This document shows, one piece after another, positions 8,781-35,418 of a stretch of 64,000 nt of DNA (position 1 is its first letter; each line of letters starts with the position of its first letter). Below the pieces are notes generated by a model that did not search any database, was not told the DNA's origin, and was given only the letters and a program-made list of their open reading frames with translations. The DNA lies in assembly GCA_000165345.1 (NCBI GenBank), contig CM000435.1:672001-736000 (forward strand), in the 5' to 3' direction. The position numbers were made by a program, and so were the translations under genes.

Positions 8781-9096
8781 TCTTCAGAAAATAATTATTA
8801 AGAGTTTGATTGAATATAGGTAAATATTCTATTAAAAAACATAATTTCATTTAACTTATCAAATCTAAATTTTACTCATCAAAGGGGGGGACAAAATTTT
8901 CATTTTTTTCCGGCATAATCTTTTAATAACCATGTCTAAAATAAATTCATTTCATTAATTGATACAATAAATTGGCTTAATATAATTAGAGGGATAATTA
9001 GAATTTAGGCAAACGAATTATGCGTAAAATGAGTACAGTAATCAAAAATTACTCTTGATCAATCTAACGAGCTTTAAAGCTAGTAAATAAAGCTTA

Positions 9097-9130
<34 letters not shown>

Positions 9131-9593
9131 CAGTTTAATACATCCGAAGAGCATTTATAATATAAACATTTTTTATCTGCCCATTAATCTCACACTTAAG
9201 AAGACTAGACATAAATTTATTTCACCCTTTTTTTATTTATTAAACCCAAGTCATAATTGATTAAATTGTTTTGCTATGTATAAATCATTCTTTCTTTGAA
9301 CATAAGTTTTGTTTTTGATAAAGTACTTTATTTGTTTTCGATTTTTTCCATATTTTATTAAATTTAAATAATAATTTTCATAGTTGATTAATCTACTTTT
9401 TTTGTATTGAAATATACATAGCGTTCATTATTGTTCACACATCGATTCCTCGAGAGAAAAATATTATGTCATAAATGGATGCTTATATCTAGAGTAGTAT
9501 TCATACATTAAATTCACTTAAACGTATAAATGGATCAAATGACCCATATTAAAGACTTACGGATCTTGGTGTTTTTTTAATTTAGAACAAAAA

Positions 9594-12500
9594 ATGAGAG
9601 AAATTGCCTTAAATAATATTGAATTAGAAAGACGGCCAAATTGGTGGAGAGGAAGTGAATCTGAAAATATTTTGGACCCATACTTTAAGAAGCCAATTTA
9701 CTCGGGCAAATCTAAGTTTAATTTTTTCCCAAAATTTTTAAAAGACAATATGAAATGGTTTAAAAATAGAATTCCATCAAATAATACTAATGACGATTAT
9801 TCTCAACTTAATGAGTATGATAAGAAGGCTATAATAGAATTTAGCAAACAGCAAAAAATAACTCAGGGACAAGAATCTTCACGATATAAATATATTTCGC
9901 CGTATTCTGAATATCTTTTGGAAAGATTAAAATGGAAGATTGCACTTCGAATTTACTACACACTAGATCCTAATGACAAAGGATATATAGAATTAGAACA
10001 TTCCAAGAAATTATTATTTGAAATGCTGAAGGTCGACACGGAAAAGGCACAAACACTCCTTTTGTTACTTGAAACTATTAAACCTTTCTATGCAAAGGAT
10101 GGATGCGTTGAAAAAAATGATATAATTATTTACTTGGCGAGGGAAATTTTCGATGACACAAGAGGGTATGGGCTTTTTTCAAAACTGAACAACATATTTA
10201 AAAATCCAATTAGTAGATCAAAAAAGCGGAATAATGATTGCTTTATCAATGGTTTTCAAGATGTTTATATGCCAAATAAAAAGCAAATATGTTTTTCTTC
10301 TGATCCAAACGCGATAAAGTTAAATGAAACAAATGTTAAGCAAAGTAATTCAAAAGACACAAATTATAATTGTACTTATTGTCAAAACAAAAATAAAGCT
10401 TGTATAACGTGCAAAATGAAAAAAAATTGCACTGGAAAATTAAGAGATCACATAAAGATCAGTGAAGATAGAAAAAGAAAGTTGATTGAGCGAATTAAAG
10501 AAGAAAAAAAAGAAATTAATGACAAAAATATGCTAGAATGCACATTTAAACCAGAAATTTTATGGCCAATTGGGAAATTTATAAATAAAAATAACAAAAG
10601 TTGGTTAAAGAACAAGAAGAATTTGAAAGGATCAAAGCTACCTCAAGAAAAAAAAAATGAAATATGCGGATATGAAATAATTAATGAGCAGAATATAGAA
10701 GATAAAAATATTCAAGTTTTTTTAAATCAAGGTTACTATTTTGATTCACTTAATAATTGGAATGGATATATACATGATAGTATTACAAATCAAGTTTATG
10801 TTATACATAAGGGATATTTTATGGATGATCACAATGTAGACAAAAATGAAATTTTCTATAGAAAAACAGACAAGGAGGAACAGAAGGAAATTCGGAATAA
10901 AATGCTGGATTCAATCATGAGGAAAATAAATATCGAGTTTCAAACTCTAGAAAATAATGAAAATGGCAATGAGAAAAAAAAATCATTAAATTTTGGAACA
11001 AAGAAATTAGTAGATAAACTTAGAGCTGAAAGAGAAACTGGAACTAATGACCCAAGATTAAATACACCAGAATTTACAATAGAAGTTAATCATCCTGAGT
11101 TCGTTGAGAAAATTGTTGATTTTAGTGAAATTAAGCCTTACAAAAATGTAACAAATCATGAAGATTCTGAAATCAAGAGAGAATATTCAACAAGCCCTTG
11201 TTATTATTATCTTCCAAGAGGATACGAAAGAATAGGTAATTGTTTTAATGAAATCCGGTTTAGGAGAAAACTTGATTTTTTAAAAGATAGTGTACGAGAT
11301 AACCGAAACATTGATACAAATAATAGTTCAAATCTGAAGGTGAAATCAAATTCATTTATAAACAAAGAATTTAATACGAAGAACAGTTCTTTATGTTTAG
11401 ATGAAAAGCCAGCTGGCTTAATCGAAGATACAAAAATGTCGAAAATTTTTAATAAATCAGCAAAAATTGATCCATCATCTCTAAAAGATTTAAATAAAAT
11501 TGTTGGTGCTGGCCAAAGTAAAAATGTTCAAGTTGAAAGTTTAGGAGGGTTAAAAAAAAATAATGGTTTAGATCAACACTTGCTCCTTAAAAGCCCATCA
11601 AAAAATGAGACGAACATAATTGGTTCTCATGTAAATGATGAAAGCGATTTTCAAAAAGGAAGTATTTTAGCTACCAAATTTAAGAAAGAATTAGAAGCTT
11701 CAATTAAAACAAAGAATAGTTTAAAAGTTTCATCAAAGATTGATTCCTCAATACATCTAATAAAAAAAGAAGCTGATACTTCAATTCAAACAAAGAGTAA
11801 CCTTAAAATTCCTCCAATAAAGAAAGAAGCTGATACTTCAATTCAAACAAAGAGCAAACTTAAAATTCCTCCAAAGAAAGATTTGTCAACACCTCCAGTA
11901 AAGAAAGAAGCTGATACTTCAATTCAAACAAAGAGCAACCTTAAAATTCCTCCAAAGAAAGATTTTTCAACACCTCCAATAAAGAAAGAAGCTGATACTT
12001 CAATTCAAACAAAGAGTAACATAAGAATTCCTCCAAAGAAAGATTTTTCAACACCTCCAATAAAGAAAGAAGCTGATACTTCAATTCAAACAAAGAGTAA
12101 CCTTAAAATTCCTCCAGTAAAGAAAGAAGCTGATACTTCAATTCAAACAAAGAGCAACCTTAAAGTTCCTCCAAAGAAAGATTTTTCAACACCTCCAATA
12201 AAGAAAGAAGCTGATACTTTAATTCAAACAAAGAAAAGCCTTGTTATTCCACCAAAGAAAGATTCCTCAGTACCTGTAATGAGCAAAGAAGCTGATACTC
12301 CAATCCCAATAAAGAATAATTTAAAAATTCCATCAAAAATAAATCCTTCGATGCCTCCAATAAAGAGAGTAGTTGTTACTTCGACTCAAGCAATGAACTG
12401 CCTTAAAATTCCACAAATGGAAGCAGCATCAGTACCTCCAATTAAGAAAGAAGTTGATACTTCAATTCAAACAAAAAAAAGCCTTATTATTCCACCAAAG

Positions 12501-27845: not shown

Positions 27846-28263
27846 GTGGGGTATATTTATTTATTCTGTATTTTGTAGTGAAAGAATTGCAAATACTCCC
27901 TGATCAATTTAACTGAACAACTGTATTCGTTGATTATCTTTAGTTTTGATATTCTAATTTGAGCTTTTATTTTTGAAAACTTATTCGATTTTTTATTAGA
28001 TCTCGATGTGGAATATTTAAGCCTATTCTAAACGTGATTAATGTCTCGCGCAATGAAAAGTGACTGAAAAAGGAGTAAGCGATAAATTATTAAATTGAAG
28101 GGCAATTTATGACAGGTTAACTTCATTTATATTGCTTATATTAACTATTGTATTAATCTTGGAGAATAGTTTGTAAATATGTAATGTTATTTAGGGAATT
28201 ACATCAAATATTAACTTCATATGAAGAGGCTCATGTTCTTTATTTTTGAACGATCACGTATCT

Positions 28264-29595
28264 ATGGAAGAATTAATTAATGATATTGAAAACATTTCAA
28301 TAAATAGTAATAATGTTGATGAATCGAATACTAAGGATCCCGAAAAAAATGATAATTTTTTTGATTATGAAATTTTATTACCAACTAGGAACCAATTAGA
28401 AGATGATTCTATTCTTTCATTAACGCCAGTTAAGGACAATGATAAGGAACTATTTAAAAATTGTATTCTTTGTAGAGATTATTCAAGCCCAATTTGTAAA
28501 GAATGTTCAAAACATAATTCAAAAACTTCAAGGAAAAGCAAACTCAAAAAAAATAAAATTATCCCAGATGGTAAAGTTAAAGCACTCGCAATGCAATTTG
28601 AAAATATTCTGCCAGAAGTAACAAATAGTAGTCCGAGCTTTTCTATTGTAAATGATAATTTCATGTTAGAGAAGAGCGAGCCTGCGCATTTTCAAGCTGA
28701 TATTTCAATAAATTCAATAATTGAGCATACAAATGTAGATAATAGAGATTATTTGAACACTAGTTTACTTGGGGACCAAACTAATATTCTTAGTATAGAT
28801 TCCGAAAACGACAATGCAAAGTCTAAAATGGCAAAAAATCAATTGACTCCAATTATAGACCCAAATTTGTGCGAAAAAATTGACCCAATAAAAGCAATTA
28901 TTACATCTTCAAACAGTTATATCAATATCGTTGGAAATACAGAAATTGGAAATTGTGCATCTGCTGATACCAAAGTTAGATCAATTGCGACAGAAATTAA
29001 CCATTTATTTGAATGTGGTTTTCCAGAAAACGATTTAATATTTGATCAATTTGAATCATTGAATCCACTAGAGCAGAGGGCTCTACTGCTGAAATGGATT
29101 ACCGAAATTCTGAAAACATCGGAAGCAAGCTCCAAATTATCAAATAATGAATTCAAAGAGATAATAAAAATTTTAAAAAGTATTGTGGATGAGTTAGAAC
29201 GCAATGAAACGTATAAAATATCCAAAAGTTCCCCAAATAACAACTCAACAGAGTATCAGTCAATTCTCAGCCATGTTTTTGATGAAAAGGATGAAAGATT
29301 AATCATTAAAAGAAATGGCATACAAATCCCTAATACTAAGAACTCAATAAAACTGGTGAATTCCAAGTTACAAATAAATATTAGTATTCCTGAAGACGAA
29401 GAGATAGAAGAGGAACGCATCAATGAACTAATATTAAATAAGTATATTTACTCAAGTAGCAACTTCGAATCAAATTCAATAATTATTGACGAAAATAGCC
29501 TGAGCCCAAAATCTGAAATAGTTTTAGATGATGAGGAAATAGTTGGAAACTCAATCAAAGAAATTGGGAATAACTTTTTTGGGTTTTTCAAATAA
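28264..29595 (+). CDS. Hypothetical protein (443 aa)
   Basis: ORF. The track start at 28246 is TTG, and the first ATG is 28264. No family recognised. Confidence 0.45.
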   Translation: MEELINDIENISINSNNVDESNTKDPEKNDNFFDYEILLPTRNQLEDDSILSLTPVKDNDKELFKNCILCRDYSSPICKECSKHNSKTSRKSKLKKNKIIPDGKVKALAMQFENILPEVTNSSPSFSIVNDNFMLEKSEPAHFQADISINSIIEHTNVDNRDYLNTSLLGDQTNILSIDSENDNAKSKMAKNQLTPIIDPNLCEKIDPIKAIITSSNSYINIVGNTEIGNCASADTKVRSIATEINHLFECGFPENDLIFDQFESLNPLEQRALLLKWITEILKTSEASSKLSNNEFKEIIKILKSIVDELERNETYKISKSSPNNNSTEYQSILSHVFDEKDERLIIKRNGIQIPNTKNSIKLVNSKLQINISIPEDEEIEEERINELILNKYIYSSSNFESNSIIIDENSLSPKSEIVLDDEEIVGNSIKEIGNNFFGFFK

Positions 29596-30425
29596 TATGG
29601 TAATAAATGTTGTATTTAATCAATTTTCTTTCTTGGAATAACTTCGTAAATCCAACTCAATTTTTTAAGTATTCTTTAGACAAAGTTGTTGCCTTATATT
29701 CAAACACTTGTTTAAAGTTAACTTAATATTTTCTCGTAATTATTTTTTCATCTATTCTCATCAAACTGCATTGACAATTTAAACATTTTTTGAACCTCTG
29801 GTTTATTATTTGAATTTTTTTTCTCTAGCAATGTTGAATGAACAATAATATTAAGTTTAATCTTATATTTTAATATTAAGCAAATTGCATATCTTTTCGA
29901 ATGAAAAGTGCGAAAAAATAAATAAGCTGGGAATATTTTGTGTAAATAATATCTAGGAATAATAATTATAAATTTATAAGTCTATCGGCTTTATTACAAC
30001 TATATTGAATCCATTAAAACTGATTATTTGGATAACTGAAATATTAGTTAAAAAAACATGTATTATCATTCCTAAATATTAATAAATTTTCATTTAAAAA
30101 GCTTGCTCATGTTAAATTGAACTAAATCCAAAATTGTTGATATTTAACCAAAGTTGAAGAAATATTATTGTTTGGGGCAACAAATTCTAGATATTGAAAA
30201 GAAGCTACAAAAAGAATGGAAATAATTAAAATGGTTGATCAATTCAAACGACACTATTTAATAAATTGTAGAAAAATTCAAGAGGTCAATCTAAATAAAT
30301 ATTTTACGTAAACCATTAAATTTAATTGGCATTAAATCAATAATTTTCAAAACAATGCCAATTCTATTAAGAAAAAAATATTTATTTTCTTTTCAATGAT
30401 TAATTTAAGAATAATTTGATTAACG

Positions 30426-31572
30426 TCAATAGCTCGTTTTAATTTCAATATTTTCAATTGACTTTAAAATGCTATCTAAACCTTTTATTAACCCTATAAA
30501 TAATTAATGAAAAATAATATAAAATAAATAACATACCTTCATTCATCAAAAAATCTTCTTCGTTCTTTCTGTTTTGTTTCAATGCATGCGTGAAATCCAA
30601 CCATCTAATGTCGCATTTTTCAACGTTTAACCTGAATTTATAATTAGACAATCAAATATTCCTCGACTTACAACATAGAACTAGTTTTTTTTGTAATATA
30701 TTTTCTTACCTATCGAAAGCTAATACAATTGAGGTTGCAATAAATCTATAACTTTTTTGCCTTTCCAACCAGAATTTCAGCAGCTCAACTTTTTTTCTTG
30801 TTAATCTAATCAAGTTCGGCGAAAGTTTTAGAAATTCAGACAAAAGTTTCATTGTTTCATTAGAAGTTAATTCTTTACCTCTTTGTCTCGAAATTGTAAT
30901 TTTATCACTAATTAGTCCTTGTATTCTAATTCCAATTTCATATTGGCATGAGTTGTTAATTATCATATACTGTTTAATAGATTTACGTAAAGACTTTAAT
31001 TTATAAAGCATGCCATTCATGAATTCAGTTTTTTCCGGGATACGTTCAATCTTACAAAAAATATCGTTGAACTCTTGTACTAGATCTTCATCTGGGAATG
31101 TTTTAGTAAAAACTTCTCTTAAGTTATAAATAGAATCATTCTTAGATTCTCCTATCCAAGATGTTCCCAATTTCAAATCAATAATGTTAATATTCGAATA
31201 TCCGCTCAAAAAATTTTTCATTTCGATTGCAGATTCAATTTTGAAGTGTTGTAAATTGTGCATTTTTTTATTTAATATTGAATTAATAAAAGATTTCCTT
31301 AAATATATTTTTTTTGATTTCTTTCCAACTTCAATAATAAGCACAAATCTGATAAACTTAGGAATAATATCATGACGTTTGAGGAGATGTTGTTTGTTAA
31401 TGGAACTATAAAAATCCAACTCATTGCAATTATCATTCTTTAATATCTTATAAATATACTTGTTATCTTTAGTAGTTAATAATAGAGTTGATCCCATAAA
31501 TCTTTCATTCTTTTCAGTGGAAAGAACCTGAAAAGGAAAGAGCTCAAAACTATTTATGCTTGAACAAAACAT
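30426..31572 (-). CDS. Inositol polyphosphate kinase (IPK family; IPMK/IP6K-like), three exons: join(30426..30493, 30537..30631, 30710..31572)
   Basis: Exon 1 carries the IPK inositol-binding motif NIIDLKLGTS (PxxxDxKxG) and the SSLLF-type motif SIVLAFD. The track ORF stops there at an AG|GTAAGA. Downstream exons restore the conserved C-terminus: RWLDFTHAL is the IDFAH catalytic motif and NEG|GLIKGLDSILKSIENI is the GYLxGLxNLI motif. The introns are 78 nt (GTAAGA...TTCAG) and 43 nt (GTATGT...TTTATAG), with consistent phases. Confidence 0.7.
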
Positions 31573-32241
31573 AAGTTATTGAATTTATTTGTGCAGATTG
31601 AATATACTAATATATTATATTTCTAATCGACAGCAACTAAAACTTTTTATGCGTATTTTAATTCTTACATTCGATGCTCGAAATTATGTGACATCTTTTT
31701 TAAAATATTTTTTTAATTTATATAGTTGTGACCAACATTAATGAAGTTTATAAATTTACATTTAGATTATTTTGAACTTCATTTTGTGAATAAAATGTAA
31801 TTAGTACAGACAAATATTATTCTCACTATTCTTTAATCAAATCGAAATAACCAACCTACACAACTAAATCCAATACGAAAATAAATTTTGATAATCTTTG
31901 ATGGCACTGCGCTAATTATGTTCTCAAAATATTAATAGTCAAAATTAAAATTTTCAATCAATTATTGCAACCTATGATGATTTCCTTTGCAATTAAATAT
32001 TCGAATATATATATATATTTACATTTTTTCGCAGTAATCTAGAACGAAATATTTTTCAATTCAATAATTGGAGCAAAGATGGAAAGTAATAAGAGATCGA
32101 GTAAAAATAAATTTAATGGTAATTTAATAATTGATAATAAGTATATGAATATGTATTTATATAAATTAAAATAGCTAAAGATACCACACAAAAATGAATG
32201 GTTATGCGTGGTGAAATATTTCAAAATTCAAACAAAAATGT

Positions 32242-32898
32242 TTATTCAGATCCAATTTCATTGTCATCGATACTTTCTTCTGAACTGTCTAAACCGTTAT
32301 CTGTGAAACCAATGTTCAATTTAGATTTTGTAGTGCAAGCGAAAAATAAGATCTTTTGGGACTTAGTGTCATAAAAAAAGTAATCAAATGAAAACAAAGA
32401 CCCATCATCCAAAAATGGACTTAGTTCGTCATTCCCCATTAATCTATACGAGTATATTTCCGTATATTTAATTTCGACGGCATCTCTAATGTTTTCCCAC
32501 AACTCTAAAAGAAAACTAGGATAAATTCTTTCTACAATACTTGAAAGGTGATAGTTAATATTATTGTATACAATAGAAAAGCTCTTCTCTTTGAATAAAT
32601 TATCTGGTTTTATTAAGCTAAATTCATAATCTGGAAAACATTGATTCATTGTACTGATCAAGTTCACCAGTAACTCACGAACATCTTGACGTTGGACAGG
32701 CCCAATAGGAGAGTTTGAAATCCATTGAGGTGATACACACACTTCTCGATCAACTCTTTCACTTAAATCACACTCTTCAACAACTTTTTCAGAGCAAGTG
32801 AATAACTCAATCCTTCCATTCAAAATTCGATCACCTACATCTAAGTTACTTAATAGTACTGACAATCGGTTTAATCCTGAATGCTCTAAGAAACGCAT
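32242..32898 (-). CDS. MAF1: Maf1, repressor of RNA polymerase III transcription
   Basis: MRFLEHSGLNRLSVLLSNLDVGDRILNGRIELFTC...IYSYRLMGNDELSPFLDDGSLFSFDYFFYDTKSQKILFFACTTKS matches Maf1 boxes (MKLLENSSFEAINS...IGRIESYSCK; CDIYSY...[27 protein letters not shown]). Confidence 0.8.
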   Translation of the reverse strand: MRFLEHSGLNRLSVLLSNLDVGDRILNGRIELFTCSEKVVEECDLSERVDREVCVSPQWISNSPIGPVQRQDVRELLVNLISTMNQCFPDYEFSLIKPDNLFKEKSFSIVYNNINYHLSSIVERIYPSFLLELWENIRDAVEIKYTEIYSYRLMGNDELSPFLDDGSLFSFDYFFYDTKSQKILFFACTTKSKLNIGFTDNGLDSSEESIDDNEIGSE

Positions 32899-33000: not shown

Positions 33001-33014
33001 GCCGCTACCGCCAT
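33001..33014. promoter_or_regulatory. GC box GCCGCTACCGCCAT in the Maf1 / Cys-rich-gene divergent promoter
   Basis: Direct reading. It parallels the box at 19211. Confidence 0.35.
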
Positions 33015-33112
33015 AATTAGAATGCTTAATTAAATATCGTTATTTTACTAAAATTTTTTCTGTAATTTGCTAACAGTTTGAAACCTGAATATTAATTTTT
33101 TGGCGAACTGAT

Positions 33113-33133
33113 TTTTTTTTTTTTTTTTTTTTT
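33113..33133. repeat. Poly(T) homopolymer run (about 21 nt) in the Maf1 / Cys-rich-gene divergent promoter
   Basis: Direct reading of the sequence. Confidence 0.85.
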
Positions 33134-33285
33134 AAATAAAAATGAACCCGCATTTTATCCCTCCATTTTTAAGCGGACTATATGCAACCAGTAAAGAGTA
33201 AACATTTTTAGTTGTAAATTTTTAATACGAAATTTAAAGTATTTGCTCAAATTCAGAAAGTGTTAGTTAAAGTCGTTTAATAATC

Positions 33286-33900
33286 ATGCCTTCAAATAAT
33301 ATTTGCTCCCCGATAACAAATTCAAATGATGAAAATTCAAATGCGTTAATCTCATCTGGGTGTAAGTCAACTGATTGTCATTGCGAAGGTAATGGGGTCG
33401 TAACCACTCATACTACATCACCAAACGTCACCCAGAAATGCTACATTACTAATTCAGGCTGTCATGAAGCAATTGTAACAACAACAACACAAGAAGTAAA
33501 AAGGCACAAATGTCCACCAAAAATCCAAAAGATTCACGAACATATTAGCCAACCTATAAACTATAATTGTTCGTCTCAATTAGGAAACGTGCCATGCAAT
33601 ATAATGATGAACCCATGCGCGTGTAGTGTTTCAAGAAGCTCATGCCACAGGACTAATCATTGTAACTGTAGTAATGGAAGTGTTCAGTTTATGTGCTGTA
33701 ATAAGTACGCAAATAGTGGATGTGGATGTTCATGTTGTTGCTGTTCTACATCGAGCGTTCAGACTACGTTATATCCTGTATATATGTCGTTCCCATATAA
33801 TCAGGGCAGAAATATCAATGTTCCCTACACAGTTTATTCAACGCCATTAAGCCATACATACAATCCACTCACAGATAATCAATACTCTTATCAATATTAA
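33286..33900 (+). CDS. Small Cys-rich protein (204 aa; Cys clusters CSCCCC, CxC, then a Tyr/Pro-rich tail)
   Basis: ORF with a verified ATG. It has about 30 Cys, including GCGCSCCCCSTSS and CHCEGNG; the C-terminus reads YPVYMSFPYNQ...YSYQY. Confidence 0.5.
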   Translation: MPSNNICSPITNSNDENSNALISSGCKSTDCHCEGNGVVTTHTTSPNVTQKCYITNSGCHEAIVTTTTQEVKRHKCPPKIQKIHEHISQPINYNCSSQLGNVPCNIMMNPCACSVSRSSCHRTNHCNCSNGSVQFMCCNKYANSGCGCSCCCCSTSSVQTTLYPVYMSFPYNQGRNINVPYTVYSTPLSHTYNPLTDNQYSYQY

Positions 33901-34023: not shown

Positions 34024-35418
34024 TTATCCACATCTTCTAATCCATGTTGGGGAACTCGAGCACCAGAATACGCCTTCGGGCGAATCGCAGCAACTGCATT
34101 TTTGTATGCCTGAGAATGAGAGATGGCCTAAAACCAAATTGAACTTAGTGTACAATGGCTTATATAACAAAAACAAAAACCCAATAGTTAGTAACGATAA
34201 TAATAACAGTAAAGAGATAACCCTGACAGTTTGAACACCGCCGCTGCATGCGCAATTTGCTGGGATAAAGCGTCCTTTAACATATTCATTTTTAGCTTCG
34301 TTATCAGAAATAGAATCTACTATTGAAGTTTCTTCAAACTGGCTTTTGGAATGACCGACTTCAACATCAGTTGGCTTAATTTGAAGTGAAAGCTGAACAT
34401 TATCTTGACTTGGCAATTGAATCGTATTTTTTCCTGAAGATTTTATTGATTTACGTAAAGCTTTGGATTTTCTTGAAAATGACTCCATGCTTGCAAAGGA
34501 CCATAATAATCCTGCAACAAATCCACCGATATGGGCCCAATTATCTGTGTTTGACATGAAACTTAAGGAAATCCCTATTAAAGAGGCAATAATAACTAAT
34601 AGAACGTATAAAAATTGCCACCGAGAATTTCTCCAATTTTCTAATAGTAATACAATAATCCCTGCCAAAAGCGCAAAGAAGCAAGCTGATGAGCCGGCAG
34701 AGATTGTGCACGGATCCAAGACTGCAGAGGCTAAATTACCAGAAATACCACCCAATAAGTAAAGTATCGCATATCTCCATATAACCCAGCGAGTCTCTAG
34801 AATAATGCCAAGTATTATTTGACATGAAAGATTAATGAAGAGATGGATAAATCCAGTGTGAAGCCAAAATGACCAAAAGAGTCGAGCCAACTGCCCATTT
34901 CTAACGAGATTCGTATCTAATGCTCCCATATCAAAAACTACCTGAGGAGGAGGTCCAAACAAATATCCATCAGGTATTTTTATAATAGAATAACCGTTCG
35001 TAAGCTGGCTAATTACTAGCTCTTGTATAAAAACAAAAATAATACTAGATGCAAAAAAGGTTGTAGCCAAATATGAAACCTTAAGCCTTGCTACACTTGA
35101 GTCACCGCCAATACAACAAAACATCGTTAGAAAGAGTGAATTCCTAGGTGTGTGTTTGCCACGTTTAATTTCAATCGTTCTTCCATTTTTTAGTGAACTT
35201 TTACCTTCAATATTTTCTTCTGATTTTGGTTGTACAACATGATTTTTGGAACTATCACTTTCATCAAATTTAAATGATTCTGTGGTTATATCCAACTCCT
35301 TACTATTACCTTCTTTAGATAGCACTACCGAACTATCTTCACTTAAGGGCATCTGTTGATTCATTAACTCTGTATGACTATTTAAAGACTGAATATCAAA
35401 AATCTTTCTGTCAGACAT
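34024..35418 (-). CDS. ROM: Rhomboid-family intramembrane serine protease (7 TM) with an approx 120-aa cytosolic N-terminus
   Basis: Multiple TM helices. TM4 is ISAGSSACFFALLAG (GxSx catalytic Ser; compare GlpG GLSGVVYAL) and TM6 is WAHIGGFVAGLL (catalytic His; compare AHIAGLAVGL). Confidence 0.75.
   Translation of the reverse strand: MSDRKIFDIQSLNSHTELMNQQMPLSEDSSVVLSKEGNSKELDITTESFKFDESDSSKNHVVQPKSEENIEGKSSLKNGRTIEIKRGKHTPRNSLFLTMFCCIGGDSSVARLKVSYLATTFFASSIIFVFIQELVISQLTNGYSIIKIPDGYLFGPPPQVVFDMGALDTNLVRNGQLARLFWSFWLHTGFIHLFINLSCQIILGIILETRWVIWRYAILYLLGGISGNLASAVLDPCTISAGSSACFFALLAGIIVLLLENWRNSRWQFLYVLLVIIASLIGISLSFMSNTDNWAHIGGFVAGLLWSFASMESFSRKSKALRKSIKSSGKNTIQLPSQDNVQLSLQIKPTDVEVGHSKSQFEETSIVDSISDNEAKNEYVKGRFIPANCACSGGVQTVRVISLLLLLSLLTIGFLFLLYKPLYTKFNLVLGHLSFSGIQKCSCCDSPEGVFWCSSSPTWIRRCG

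Follow-up and report, generated by a model that had tools for sequence, protein, structure and literature searches.

The gene cgd7_3010 of Cryptosporidium parvum lies within a 64,000-nucleotide stretch of DNA (NCBI GenBank assembly GCA_000165345.1, contig CM000435.1, positions 672,001 to 736,000 of the forward strand; hereafter the window) and encodes a small cysteine-rich protein. We find that cgd7_3010 is a real, conserved gene under strong purifying selection, is found only in Cryptosporidium, and gives rise to very abundant mRNA in sporozoites and oocysts. We tentatively favor the reading that its product is an intracellular Cys/His-rich protein that buffers metals or thiols; we infer its metal binding, its buffering role and the function of its tail from conserved residues and from expression. 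An earlier note on the same DNA had likened the protein to metal-binding (metallothionein-like) or structural cross-linking proteins and suggested that its tail could support dityrosine cross-links as in oocyst or spore walls. The metal-binding half of that suggestion stays plausible, whereas one practical outcome of the present analysis is that the oocyst-wall reading is removed as unsupported.

Cryptosporidium is a leading cause of childhood diarrhea, and it is transmitted via a disinfectant-resistant oocyst/sporozoite stage. The transcript of cgd7_3010 is among the top 50 of that stage, the gene is conserved in every Cryptosporidium species examined and is strongly constrained, and within the protein searches made it is absent from the host and from other sequenced organisms. 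Should cgd7_3010 prove to buffer metals or thiols, it would supply what metal biology in apicomplexans lacks, a known cytosolic storage protein, and offer a handle on sporozoite longevity. Even if the metal reading is wrong, a genus-specific and highly expressed sporozoite product is a reasonable candidate for diagnosis or intervention.

Gene identity and conservation

The window is AT-rich eukaryotic DNA (30.6% GC). The open reading frame (ORF) under study begins at the first ATG after a stop, with no in-frame extension upstream of this start, and runs to a TAA; the 204-residue product has a mass of 22.4 kDa and an isoelectric point (pI) of 8.0. An identical gene is present on the 1.36-Mb C. 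parvum chromosome CP141124.1 (GCA_035232765.1). The minus-strand rhomboid gene that follows (34024..35418, 464 residues) is CpRom2, that is, cgd7_3020 or Q5CYB1 (PMC13095730), and published tables give the order cgd7_3000 (Maf1), cgd7_3010, cgd7_3020 (PMC6877471); the ORF is therefore cgd7_3010. It corresponds to UniProt Q5CYB2, GenBank EAK90310.1 and CPATCC_003498, and its database names are 'cysteine-rich protein' and 'hypothetical protein CPATCC_003498'. The gene is already annotated and present in expression tables. In the searchable literature, no paper text mentions cgd7_3010, Q5CYB2, CPATCC_003498, EAK90310 or cubi_02973. Rfam and tRNA matches were absent from the entire window, and explanations based on RNA were dropped.

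A word-indexed search of 5.8 billion proteins returned only Cryptosporidium orthologs, from C. hominis, C. meleagridis, C. tyzzeri, chipmunk genotype I, C. ubiquitum, C. canis, C. felis, C. ryanae and C. xiaoi, together with some metagenome copies. An exhaustive hidden Markov model (HMM) scan of 1.84 billion cluster representatives added one ortholog, cand_019760 of C. andersoni (E=1.6e-47). The same scan listed a bacterial surface-repeat protein (E=5.6e-4), which matched the low-complexity tail and is considered spurious; a profile search with the tail only gave no match. Consistent with this restricted distribution, the OrthoMCL group of cgd7_3010 contains three taxa only (Table S1, PMC6536522).

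In C. parvum the gene order is Maf1 (minus), cgd7_3010 (plus), the rhomboid CpRom2 (minus) and importin-beta (minus), and the same order is found in C. meleagridis, C. ubiquitum, C. canis, C. felis, C. ryanae and the gastric species C. andersoni. The ORF is intact, colinear and syntenic in all seven species examined. Nei-Gojobori ratios of nonsynonymous to synonymous substitution (dN/dS) are 0.071 against C. meleagridis and 0.066 against C. ubiquitum, and they fall between 0.05 and 0.07 over five species pairs; the neighboring Maf1 is similar (0.03-0.05), and the rhomboid is less tightly constrained (0.15-0.20). The total number of Cys ranges from 20 to 24 in all 14 orthologs and is odd (21 or 23) in several species, and 19 Cys/His positions are invariant from C. 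parvum through C. andersoni.

Expression

Three independent published studies report very high mRNA levels of cgd7_3010 in sporozoites or oocysts. In Tandel et al. 2019 (PMC6877471), excysted sporozoites have log2 counts per million (CPM) of 13.30, 13.13 and 13.14 for this gene, compared with 7.8 at 24 h and 8.0 at 48 h of infection. From these data, the sporozoite level is ~9,000-10,000 CPM, 41-fold above that at 24/48 h. In the sorted cells of the same study, log2 CPM is 10.8 in asexual stages, 9.07 in females in vitro and 8.57 in females in vivo, with a log2 fold change of -1.73 for females against asexual stages (PMC6877471).

Matos et al. 2019 list cgd7_3010 in the top-50 expressed oocyst/sporozoite genes (Table S1, PMC6536522), and the same list contains glutaredoxin, a thioredoxin/glutathione reductase, a protein with a glutathione S-transferase domain, translation factors and RNA-binding proteins. 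By quantitative reverse-transcription PCR, Mauzy et al. 2012 (PMC3305300) found a peak at 2 h (geometric mean 5.8e-3) and a minimum at 72 h (7.5e-4), with values orders of magnitude over those of neighboring genes.

Cysteine and histidine content and regions of the protein

The protein contains 22 Cys (10.8%), fewer than the ~30 that the earlier note had given, along with 9 His, 12 Tyr, 13 Pro and 2 Phe. Among the 31 ORFs of at least 150 residues in the window, the mean Cys content is 2.07% and the second-richest ORF reaches 4.6%; the binomial probability of at least 22 Cys in 204 residues is 4e-10, an enrichment far above chance. The cysteines are clustered: 14 of the 22 have another Cys no more than two residues away (CHC, CAC, CNC, CC and CGCSCCCC), and six adjoin a His. 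All three Cys motifs singled out earlier were located, namely CHCEGNG (residues 31-37), CNCSNGSVQFMCCNKY (residues 126-141) and GCGCSCCCCSTSS (residues 145-157), as was the Tyr/Pro-rich tail, STSSVQTTLYPVYMSFPYNQ...YSYQY, which has 9 Tyr and 5 Pro in its 51 residues (154-204).

By hydropathy, cgd7_3010 and 13 orthologs lack a signal peptide and a transmembrane (TM) helix, in agreement with the earlier note. For cgd7_3010 the Kyte-Doolittle mean reaches at most 0.66 over any 19 residues and is -0.99 over the first 20. Since no ortholog has a signal peptide or a TM helix, the thiols would sit in a reducing compartment.

The protein divides into six regions (Table 1). Within the leader, which is not hydrophobic and hence not a signal peptide, M1, S3, C7 and N14 are invariant across the genus. 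In residues 26-95, seven Cys and five His are invariant genus-wide (C26, C31-H32-C33, C52, C59-H60, H74, C76, H84, H86 and C95), and the segment contains GCHEA-(I/V)(I/V)-TTTTQE and HKCPPK...HEH. From this pattern, residues 26-95 are a candidate structural zinc-binding beta module, and the 12 invariant ligands would be enough for up to three tetrahedral sites. An apparent internal duplication of a 'CH...VTT...KC' unit (residues 31-52 versus 59-76) was rejected, as it was not significant against shuffles (p=0.14).

Downstream of this module, identity falls to 39% with indels (residues 96-147), and Cys columns 111, 113, 120/121, 126, 138 and 146 are kept in 8-9 of 9 species. Residues 96-153 (58 residues) are 24% Cys and contain only two aromatic residues. 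In the C. andersoni ortholog cand_019760, which has 24 Cys, this variable Cys-rich segment carries a HYGHHHHGHHHHGHY insertion (residues 137-151; L005, 6409-6453) that includes an HHHHGHHHHGH run; it may reflect an added capacity for metal binding in this lineage or a simple low-complexity expansion. The Cys string at residues 146-153 varies across the genus as CNCSCCCC, CCCCC and CNCCC, and is a candidate metal-thiolate cluster or multi-palmitoylation site.

Constraint rises again after the string, with 81% identity over residues 148-185 and a dN/dS of 0.016-0.022 in the tail. The consensus of residues 154-185 is S-T-S-(S/T)-V-Q-T-T-L-Y-P-x-(Y/F)-M-x-x-P-x-x-Q-G-(R/K)-x-I-x-(V/I)-P-Y-T, and this motif is probably a partner-binding linear motif. 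It includes an R/K-x4-PY element (residues 175-181) that is found in 13 of 14 orthologs and fits the C-terminal half of the consensus of the PY-type nuclear localization signal (PY-NLS). The variable C-terminus keeps a QY-x-YQY-type sequence in which Y200 and Y202 are invariant.

Table 1. Coordinates, in the window, of the cgd7_3010 coding sequence, the regions of its product and an upstream element
Feature	Position	Strand	Description
Coding sequence of cgd7_3010	33286..33900	+	complete, single exon; TAA stop at 33898-33900
Residues 1-25	33286..33360	+	polar, acidic (pI 4.05), Asn/Ser-rich leader; invariant Cys7
Residues 26-95	33361..33570	+	gapless conserved Cys/His module; mean pairwise identity 78%
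Residues 96-145	33571..33720	+	fast-evolving, indel-prone Cys-rich spacer; CAC, CNC and CC motifs
Residues 146-153	33721..33744	+	Cys string C-G-C-S-C-C-C-C, kept genus-wide
Residues 154-185	33745..33840	+	near-invariant tail motif
Residues 186-204	33841..33897	+	variable Tyr/Pro/Asn/Gln-rich C-terminus; 48% identity
GC-rich element CCCGCATTTTATCCCTCC-ATTTTT-AAGCGGAC	33147..33178		108-139 nt before the cgd7_3010 ATG

Family and fold searches

The earlier note had recognized no family for this protein, and our searches bear this out. Pfam gave no significant family for the full protein, three segments of it or eight orthologs, and sequence-profile searches of NCBIfam and the PDB gave no significant match for the full protein or its N-terminal module; the exhaustive profile scan found Cryptosporidium orthologs only. 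Two outcomes had been named in the earlier note as counting against its interpretation, a lack of transcription and a clear match to a known family with another function; what we find is a heavily transcribed gene and no family.

Two sub-threshold matches deserve description. The sole PDB sequence match of the N-terminal module was 6grv_A, a bacterial 'Metallothionein', and was non-significant (E=1.4, 11.9 bits, 16 residues). Golvesin_C (PF25275) scored E=0.004 and 17.7 bits, against a gathering cut-off of 31.6 bits; the match covers window positions 33709-33846 (residues 142-187), spanning the Cys string and the tail, and only profile positions 34-79 of 132. It recurs in four of nine orthologs, the four closest, and is absent from all nine composition-matched shuffles, so it is not purely compositional. 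We treated this partial, sub-threshold signal as a probable chance match, and the golvesin literature yielded nothing on the Golvesin_C domain.

AlphaFold2 returned a mean predicted local distance difference test score of 33.6 for the full length and 47.6 for the N-terminal module, the latter with tentative beta-hairpins only. The underlying alignment is shallow, and the models are too poor for interpretation. A Foldseek search of the PDB with the model of the N-terminal module gave no match at E<=0.001, the best being 2.3. Failure to predict a fold is expected for a metal-dependent or disordered apo-protein.

A metal- or thiol-buffering reading and its alternatives

The reading that we favor is that cgd7_3010 would be a non-secreted protein; the oocyst-enclosed sporozoite would hold a stock of it, at least at the mRNA level, and the protein would bind metal, most likely Zn2+ and possibly Cu+, via its conserved thiolates and imidazoles. 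Three parts may be distinguished. Residues 26-95 would be a small beta-rich module stabilized by up to three Cys/His metal sites; residues 96-153 would form a metallothionein-like segment in which only the ligand Cys are constrained and which ends in CxCxCCCC; and the near-invariant Tyr/Pro tail, which resembles a PY-type import signal, would serve as a docking or targeting motif for a partner. The protein may then act as a metal store and as a thiol/redox buffer for the dormant, exposed transmission stage and for the first hours after invasion.

This reading is favored because it brings together the conserved Cys/His residues, the constraint on ligands, the absence of secretion, the lack of an autonomous fold and the massive expression beside thiol-redox enzymes. 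In particular, Cys and His positions are held while the residues between the middle cysteines diverge, and such ligand-only constraint is typical of metal-thiolate proteins. The odd Cys totals in several species and the CCCC run argue against an obligatory all-disulfide fold. Metallothioneins, which include long multi-domain forms in ciliates, also alveolates, are among the closest known parallels. Like cgd7_3010 they are small and non-secreted, with CxC, CC and CCC clusters and conserved Cys at drifting spacers, and they have no autonomous predicted fold and reach very high expression beside redox genes. Unlike them, cgd7_3010 has an overall Cys content of 10.8% and not 15-30%, with only the segment 96-153 reaching 24%; it matches no family model; it contains 12 Tyr, 2 Phe and 9 His; and it has a separate conserved Cys/His module, putatively of beta structure, and a conserved Tyr/Pro tail, neither of which metallothioneins have. 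The protein works, at most, like a metallothionein and is a member of no metallothionein family.

Several observations weigh against metal or thiol buffering. No metallothionein or zinc-finger Pfam model matched any segment or ortholog, even at E<=10. A Cys content below the usual metallothionein range (~15-30%) is joined by a mass, 22 kDa, that is large for a metallothionein and by a richness in Tyr and His, two residues that classical metallothioneins avoid. The AlphaFold2 failure is uninformative and not supportive, the alignment being shallow; AlphaFold2 usually recognizes zinc modules when given a deep alignment. The His-rich run of C. andersoni, confined to one species, may be low-complexity drift. 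Abundant sporozoite mRNA does not by itself reveal protein function, and no protein-level detection was obtained, as cgd7_3010 was not found in the supplements of the sporozoite extracellular-vesicle proteome; it was also absent from the supplements of the AP2-F paper. Finally, the metal binding of cgd7_3010 is itself inferred from the arrangement of its residues.

A bolder form of the proposal is that cgd7_3010 is the first apicomplexan metallothionein-like protein, an independently evolved, genus-specific, two-part Cys/His buffer of metal and thiols. We hold this to be unlikely, and clearly less probable than metal or thiol buffering in general. If true, such a buffer would help oocysts last for months under environmental, metal and oxidant stress, chlorine included, and would provide zinc when the parasite invades. 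On metal storage in Apicomplexa, a 2021 review describes vacuolar transporters but neither a cytosolic metal-binding storage protein nor ferritin (PMC7612242).

Other readings were weighed against metal or thiol buffering. The main rival, which we also judge unlikely, is that S-palmitoylation makes cgd7_3010 a peripheral membrane protein of the zoite: CxCxCCCC, perhaps with Cys7, would be multiply acylated by DHHC enzymes to anchor the protein to the inner membrane complex, the plasma membrane or an organelle, and the conserved tail would recruit a partner. A dense Cys run without a TM helix is shared with Cys-string and other S-acylated anchors (CSP-alpha/DNAJC5, SNAP-25, ISPs and ARO), and a report on CpARO describes acylation anchoring as used in C. 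parvum zoites (PMC13432881). A compact Cys string kept genus-wide in a protein with neither TM helix nor signal peptide, an expression peak in the invasive zoite stage and a near-invariant tail that, beside the string, looks like an interaction motif all fit this rival. However, the string holds only 6-8 of the 22 Cys; most Cys lie outside it and co-vary with His, and the pairing of these other conserved Cys with conserved His over a 70-residue module is unexplained by acylation. Polar residues flank the string (NSG...STSS), and they include no element, whether hydrophobic, basic or for myristoylation, that would give initial membrane affinity; unlike the known anchors, cgd7_3010 has no J-domain (no DnaJ match), SNARE, armadillo domain or N-terminal Gly for myristoylation. 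Palmitoylation would be compatible with metal binding or with a zinc-stabilized N-terminal module. The latter is also compatible with a more doubtful alternative, a zinc-finger-like regulator in the nucleus or in ribonucleoprotein granules, whose Cys/His module would bind nucleic acid or a protein partner, whose R/K-x4-PY would be a transportin-type PY-NLS, and whose Tyr/Asn/Gln-rich end would promote condensation; it could act in the stored-mRNA or early-invasion program of the sporozoite. A gapless module in which seven Cys and five His never vary would suit such a regulator, as would the presence of translation factors and RNA-binding proteins in the same top-50 list (PMC6536522). Comparison with PY-NLS cargo of transportin/Kap-beta2 is less clear. 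R/K-x4-PY is accompanied in 12 of 14 orthologs by an upstream hydrophobic motif phi-G/A/S-phi-phi (M-S-F-P type; MSFP in cgd7_3010), but the spacing from this motif to PY is shorter than in the published PY-NLS rule; the tail is not basic (pI 6.5), and one ortholog is without the basic residue. In addition, no known zinc-finger or nucleic-acid-binding model in Pfam matched, and an mRNA at ~1% of the pool is unusual for a regulator.

Less probable again is a structural cross-linker that would hold together the oocyst wall, or another rigid structure, via disulfide and dityrosine bonds. High Cys, nine Tyr in the 51-residue tail and a transcript abundant in oocyst-derived material (PMC6536522) speak for it, and the Cys-rich COWP1-9 and the Tyr-rich Eimeria GAM56 and GAM82 are, like cgd7_3010, linked to the transmission stage. 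Yet wall cross-linking by cgd7_3010, as the earlier note had it, fails on routing, timing and homology. COWP and GAM proteins carry signal peptides, come from female wall-forming bodies and consist of repeated Cys domains; cgd7_3010, like every ortholog, has no signal peptide. Signal peptides occur in most of 69 candidate wall genes expressed in females, whose wall-forming bodies produce COWP1 (PMC6877471). COWP transcription is highest at 48-72 h (PMC3734150), whereas cgd7_3010 has the opposite stage profile, down in sorted females and lowest at 72 h. It has no internal repeats and no similarity to COWPs or to any protein outside its own orthologs, and no COWP paralog emerged from the searches of 5.8 and 1.84 billion proteins. 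The odd Cys totals in several species also stand against a disulfide cross-linker. To our knowledge, Cryptosporidium oocyst walls do not show the ultraviolet autofluorescence by which dityrosine walls are recognized in Eimeria, Cyclospora and Toxoplasma. In animals, cytosolic cross-linkers such as the ultra-high-sulfur keratin-associated proteins, sperm SMCP and SPRR/LCE are stored for a resistant end-stage structure. They share with cgd7_3010 the absence of secretion, CC and CCC motifs and Pro/Tyr-rich segments, but they are not homologous to it, are built from repeats and act in dying or oxidizing compartments, and we know of no structure in sporozoites comparable to their targets. At the far end of the scale lies a chance ORF or mis-annotation with no protein product, which we consider extremely improbable. 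The lack of protein-level evidence would fit it, but the ORF is intact and syntenic in seven species with low dN/dS in all five species pairs, and three independent studies find very high levels of its mRNA; genus-wide purifying selection effectively refutes this reading.

Upstream elements and neighboring genes

The GC-rich element upstream of cgd7_3010 (Table 1) is unique in the window. C. meleagridis, C. ubiquitum and C. canis match its core exactly, C. felis and C. ryanae nearly so, and in C. andersoni it is degenerate but recognizable, while the surrounding AT-rich intergenic DNA diverges. From this conservation, it is probably a promoter or 5'-untranslated-region element. Its second half resembles the C. 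parvum E2F-like motif TTTGGCGGGAAV (PMC3734150); the C. ryanae version reads TTTTGGGCGGAAA. Like cgd7_3010, E2F-only gene clusters were reported to reach their maximum 2 h after infection (PMC3734150). A hairpin reading of the CCCGC...GCGG element offers no covariation to test, all positions being invariant.

A run of 22 T (window 33112-33133) lies just upstream of the GC-rich element; in C. meleagridis this run has fewer T, and in C. ubiquitum and C. canis it is interrupted. The divergent Maf1/cgd7_3010 intergenic region also contains GCCGCTACCGCC (window 33001-33012), another conserved GC block, ~100 nt from where Maf1 starts. C. meleagridis, C. ubiquitum and C. ryanae retain this block and C. 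canis has a near-identical copy; it may serve as a promoter element of Maf1 or of both genes.

On the other side of the gene, CpRom2 evolves two to three times faster than cgd7_3010 and is regulated in the same direction, at ~12.6 log2 CPM in sporozoites versus ~8.2-9.1 at 24/48 h (PMC6877471).

Beyond Maf1, the arrangement differs between species. In C. parvum (window ~28246-32898), IPK (cgd7_2990) adjoins Maf1, and a gene of 443 residues without a Pfam match lies on the other side of IPK; in C. andersoni, a gene of 434 residues without a Pfam match lies between IPK and Maf1 (L005, 3226-4530). This suggests a small local rearrangement near IPK between the gastric and intestinal lineages, with putative homology of the 434- and 443-residue genes. 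IPK itself (window 30706-31572 and upstream) is annotated as 341 residues over 1,147 bp. Because the annotated product exceeds the longest ORF in the window, 288 residues, cgd7_2990 appears to contain an intron, a feature that is uncommon in the C. parvum genome.

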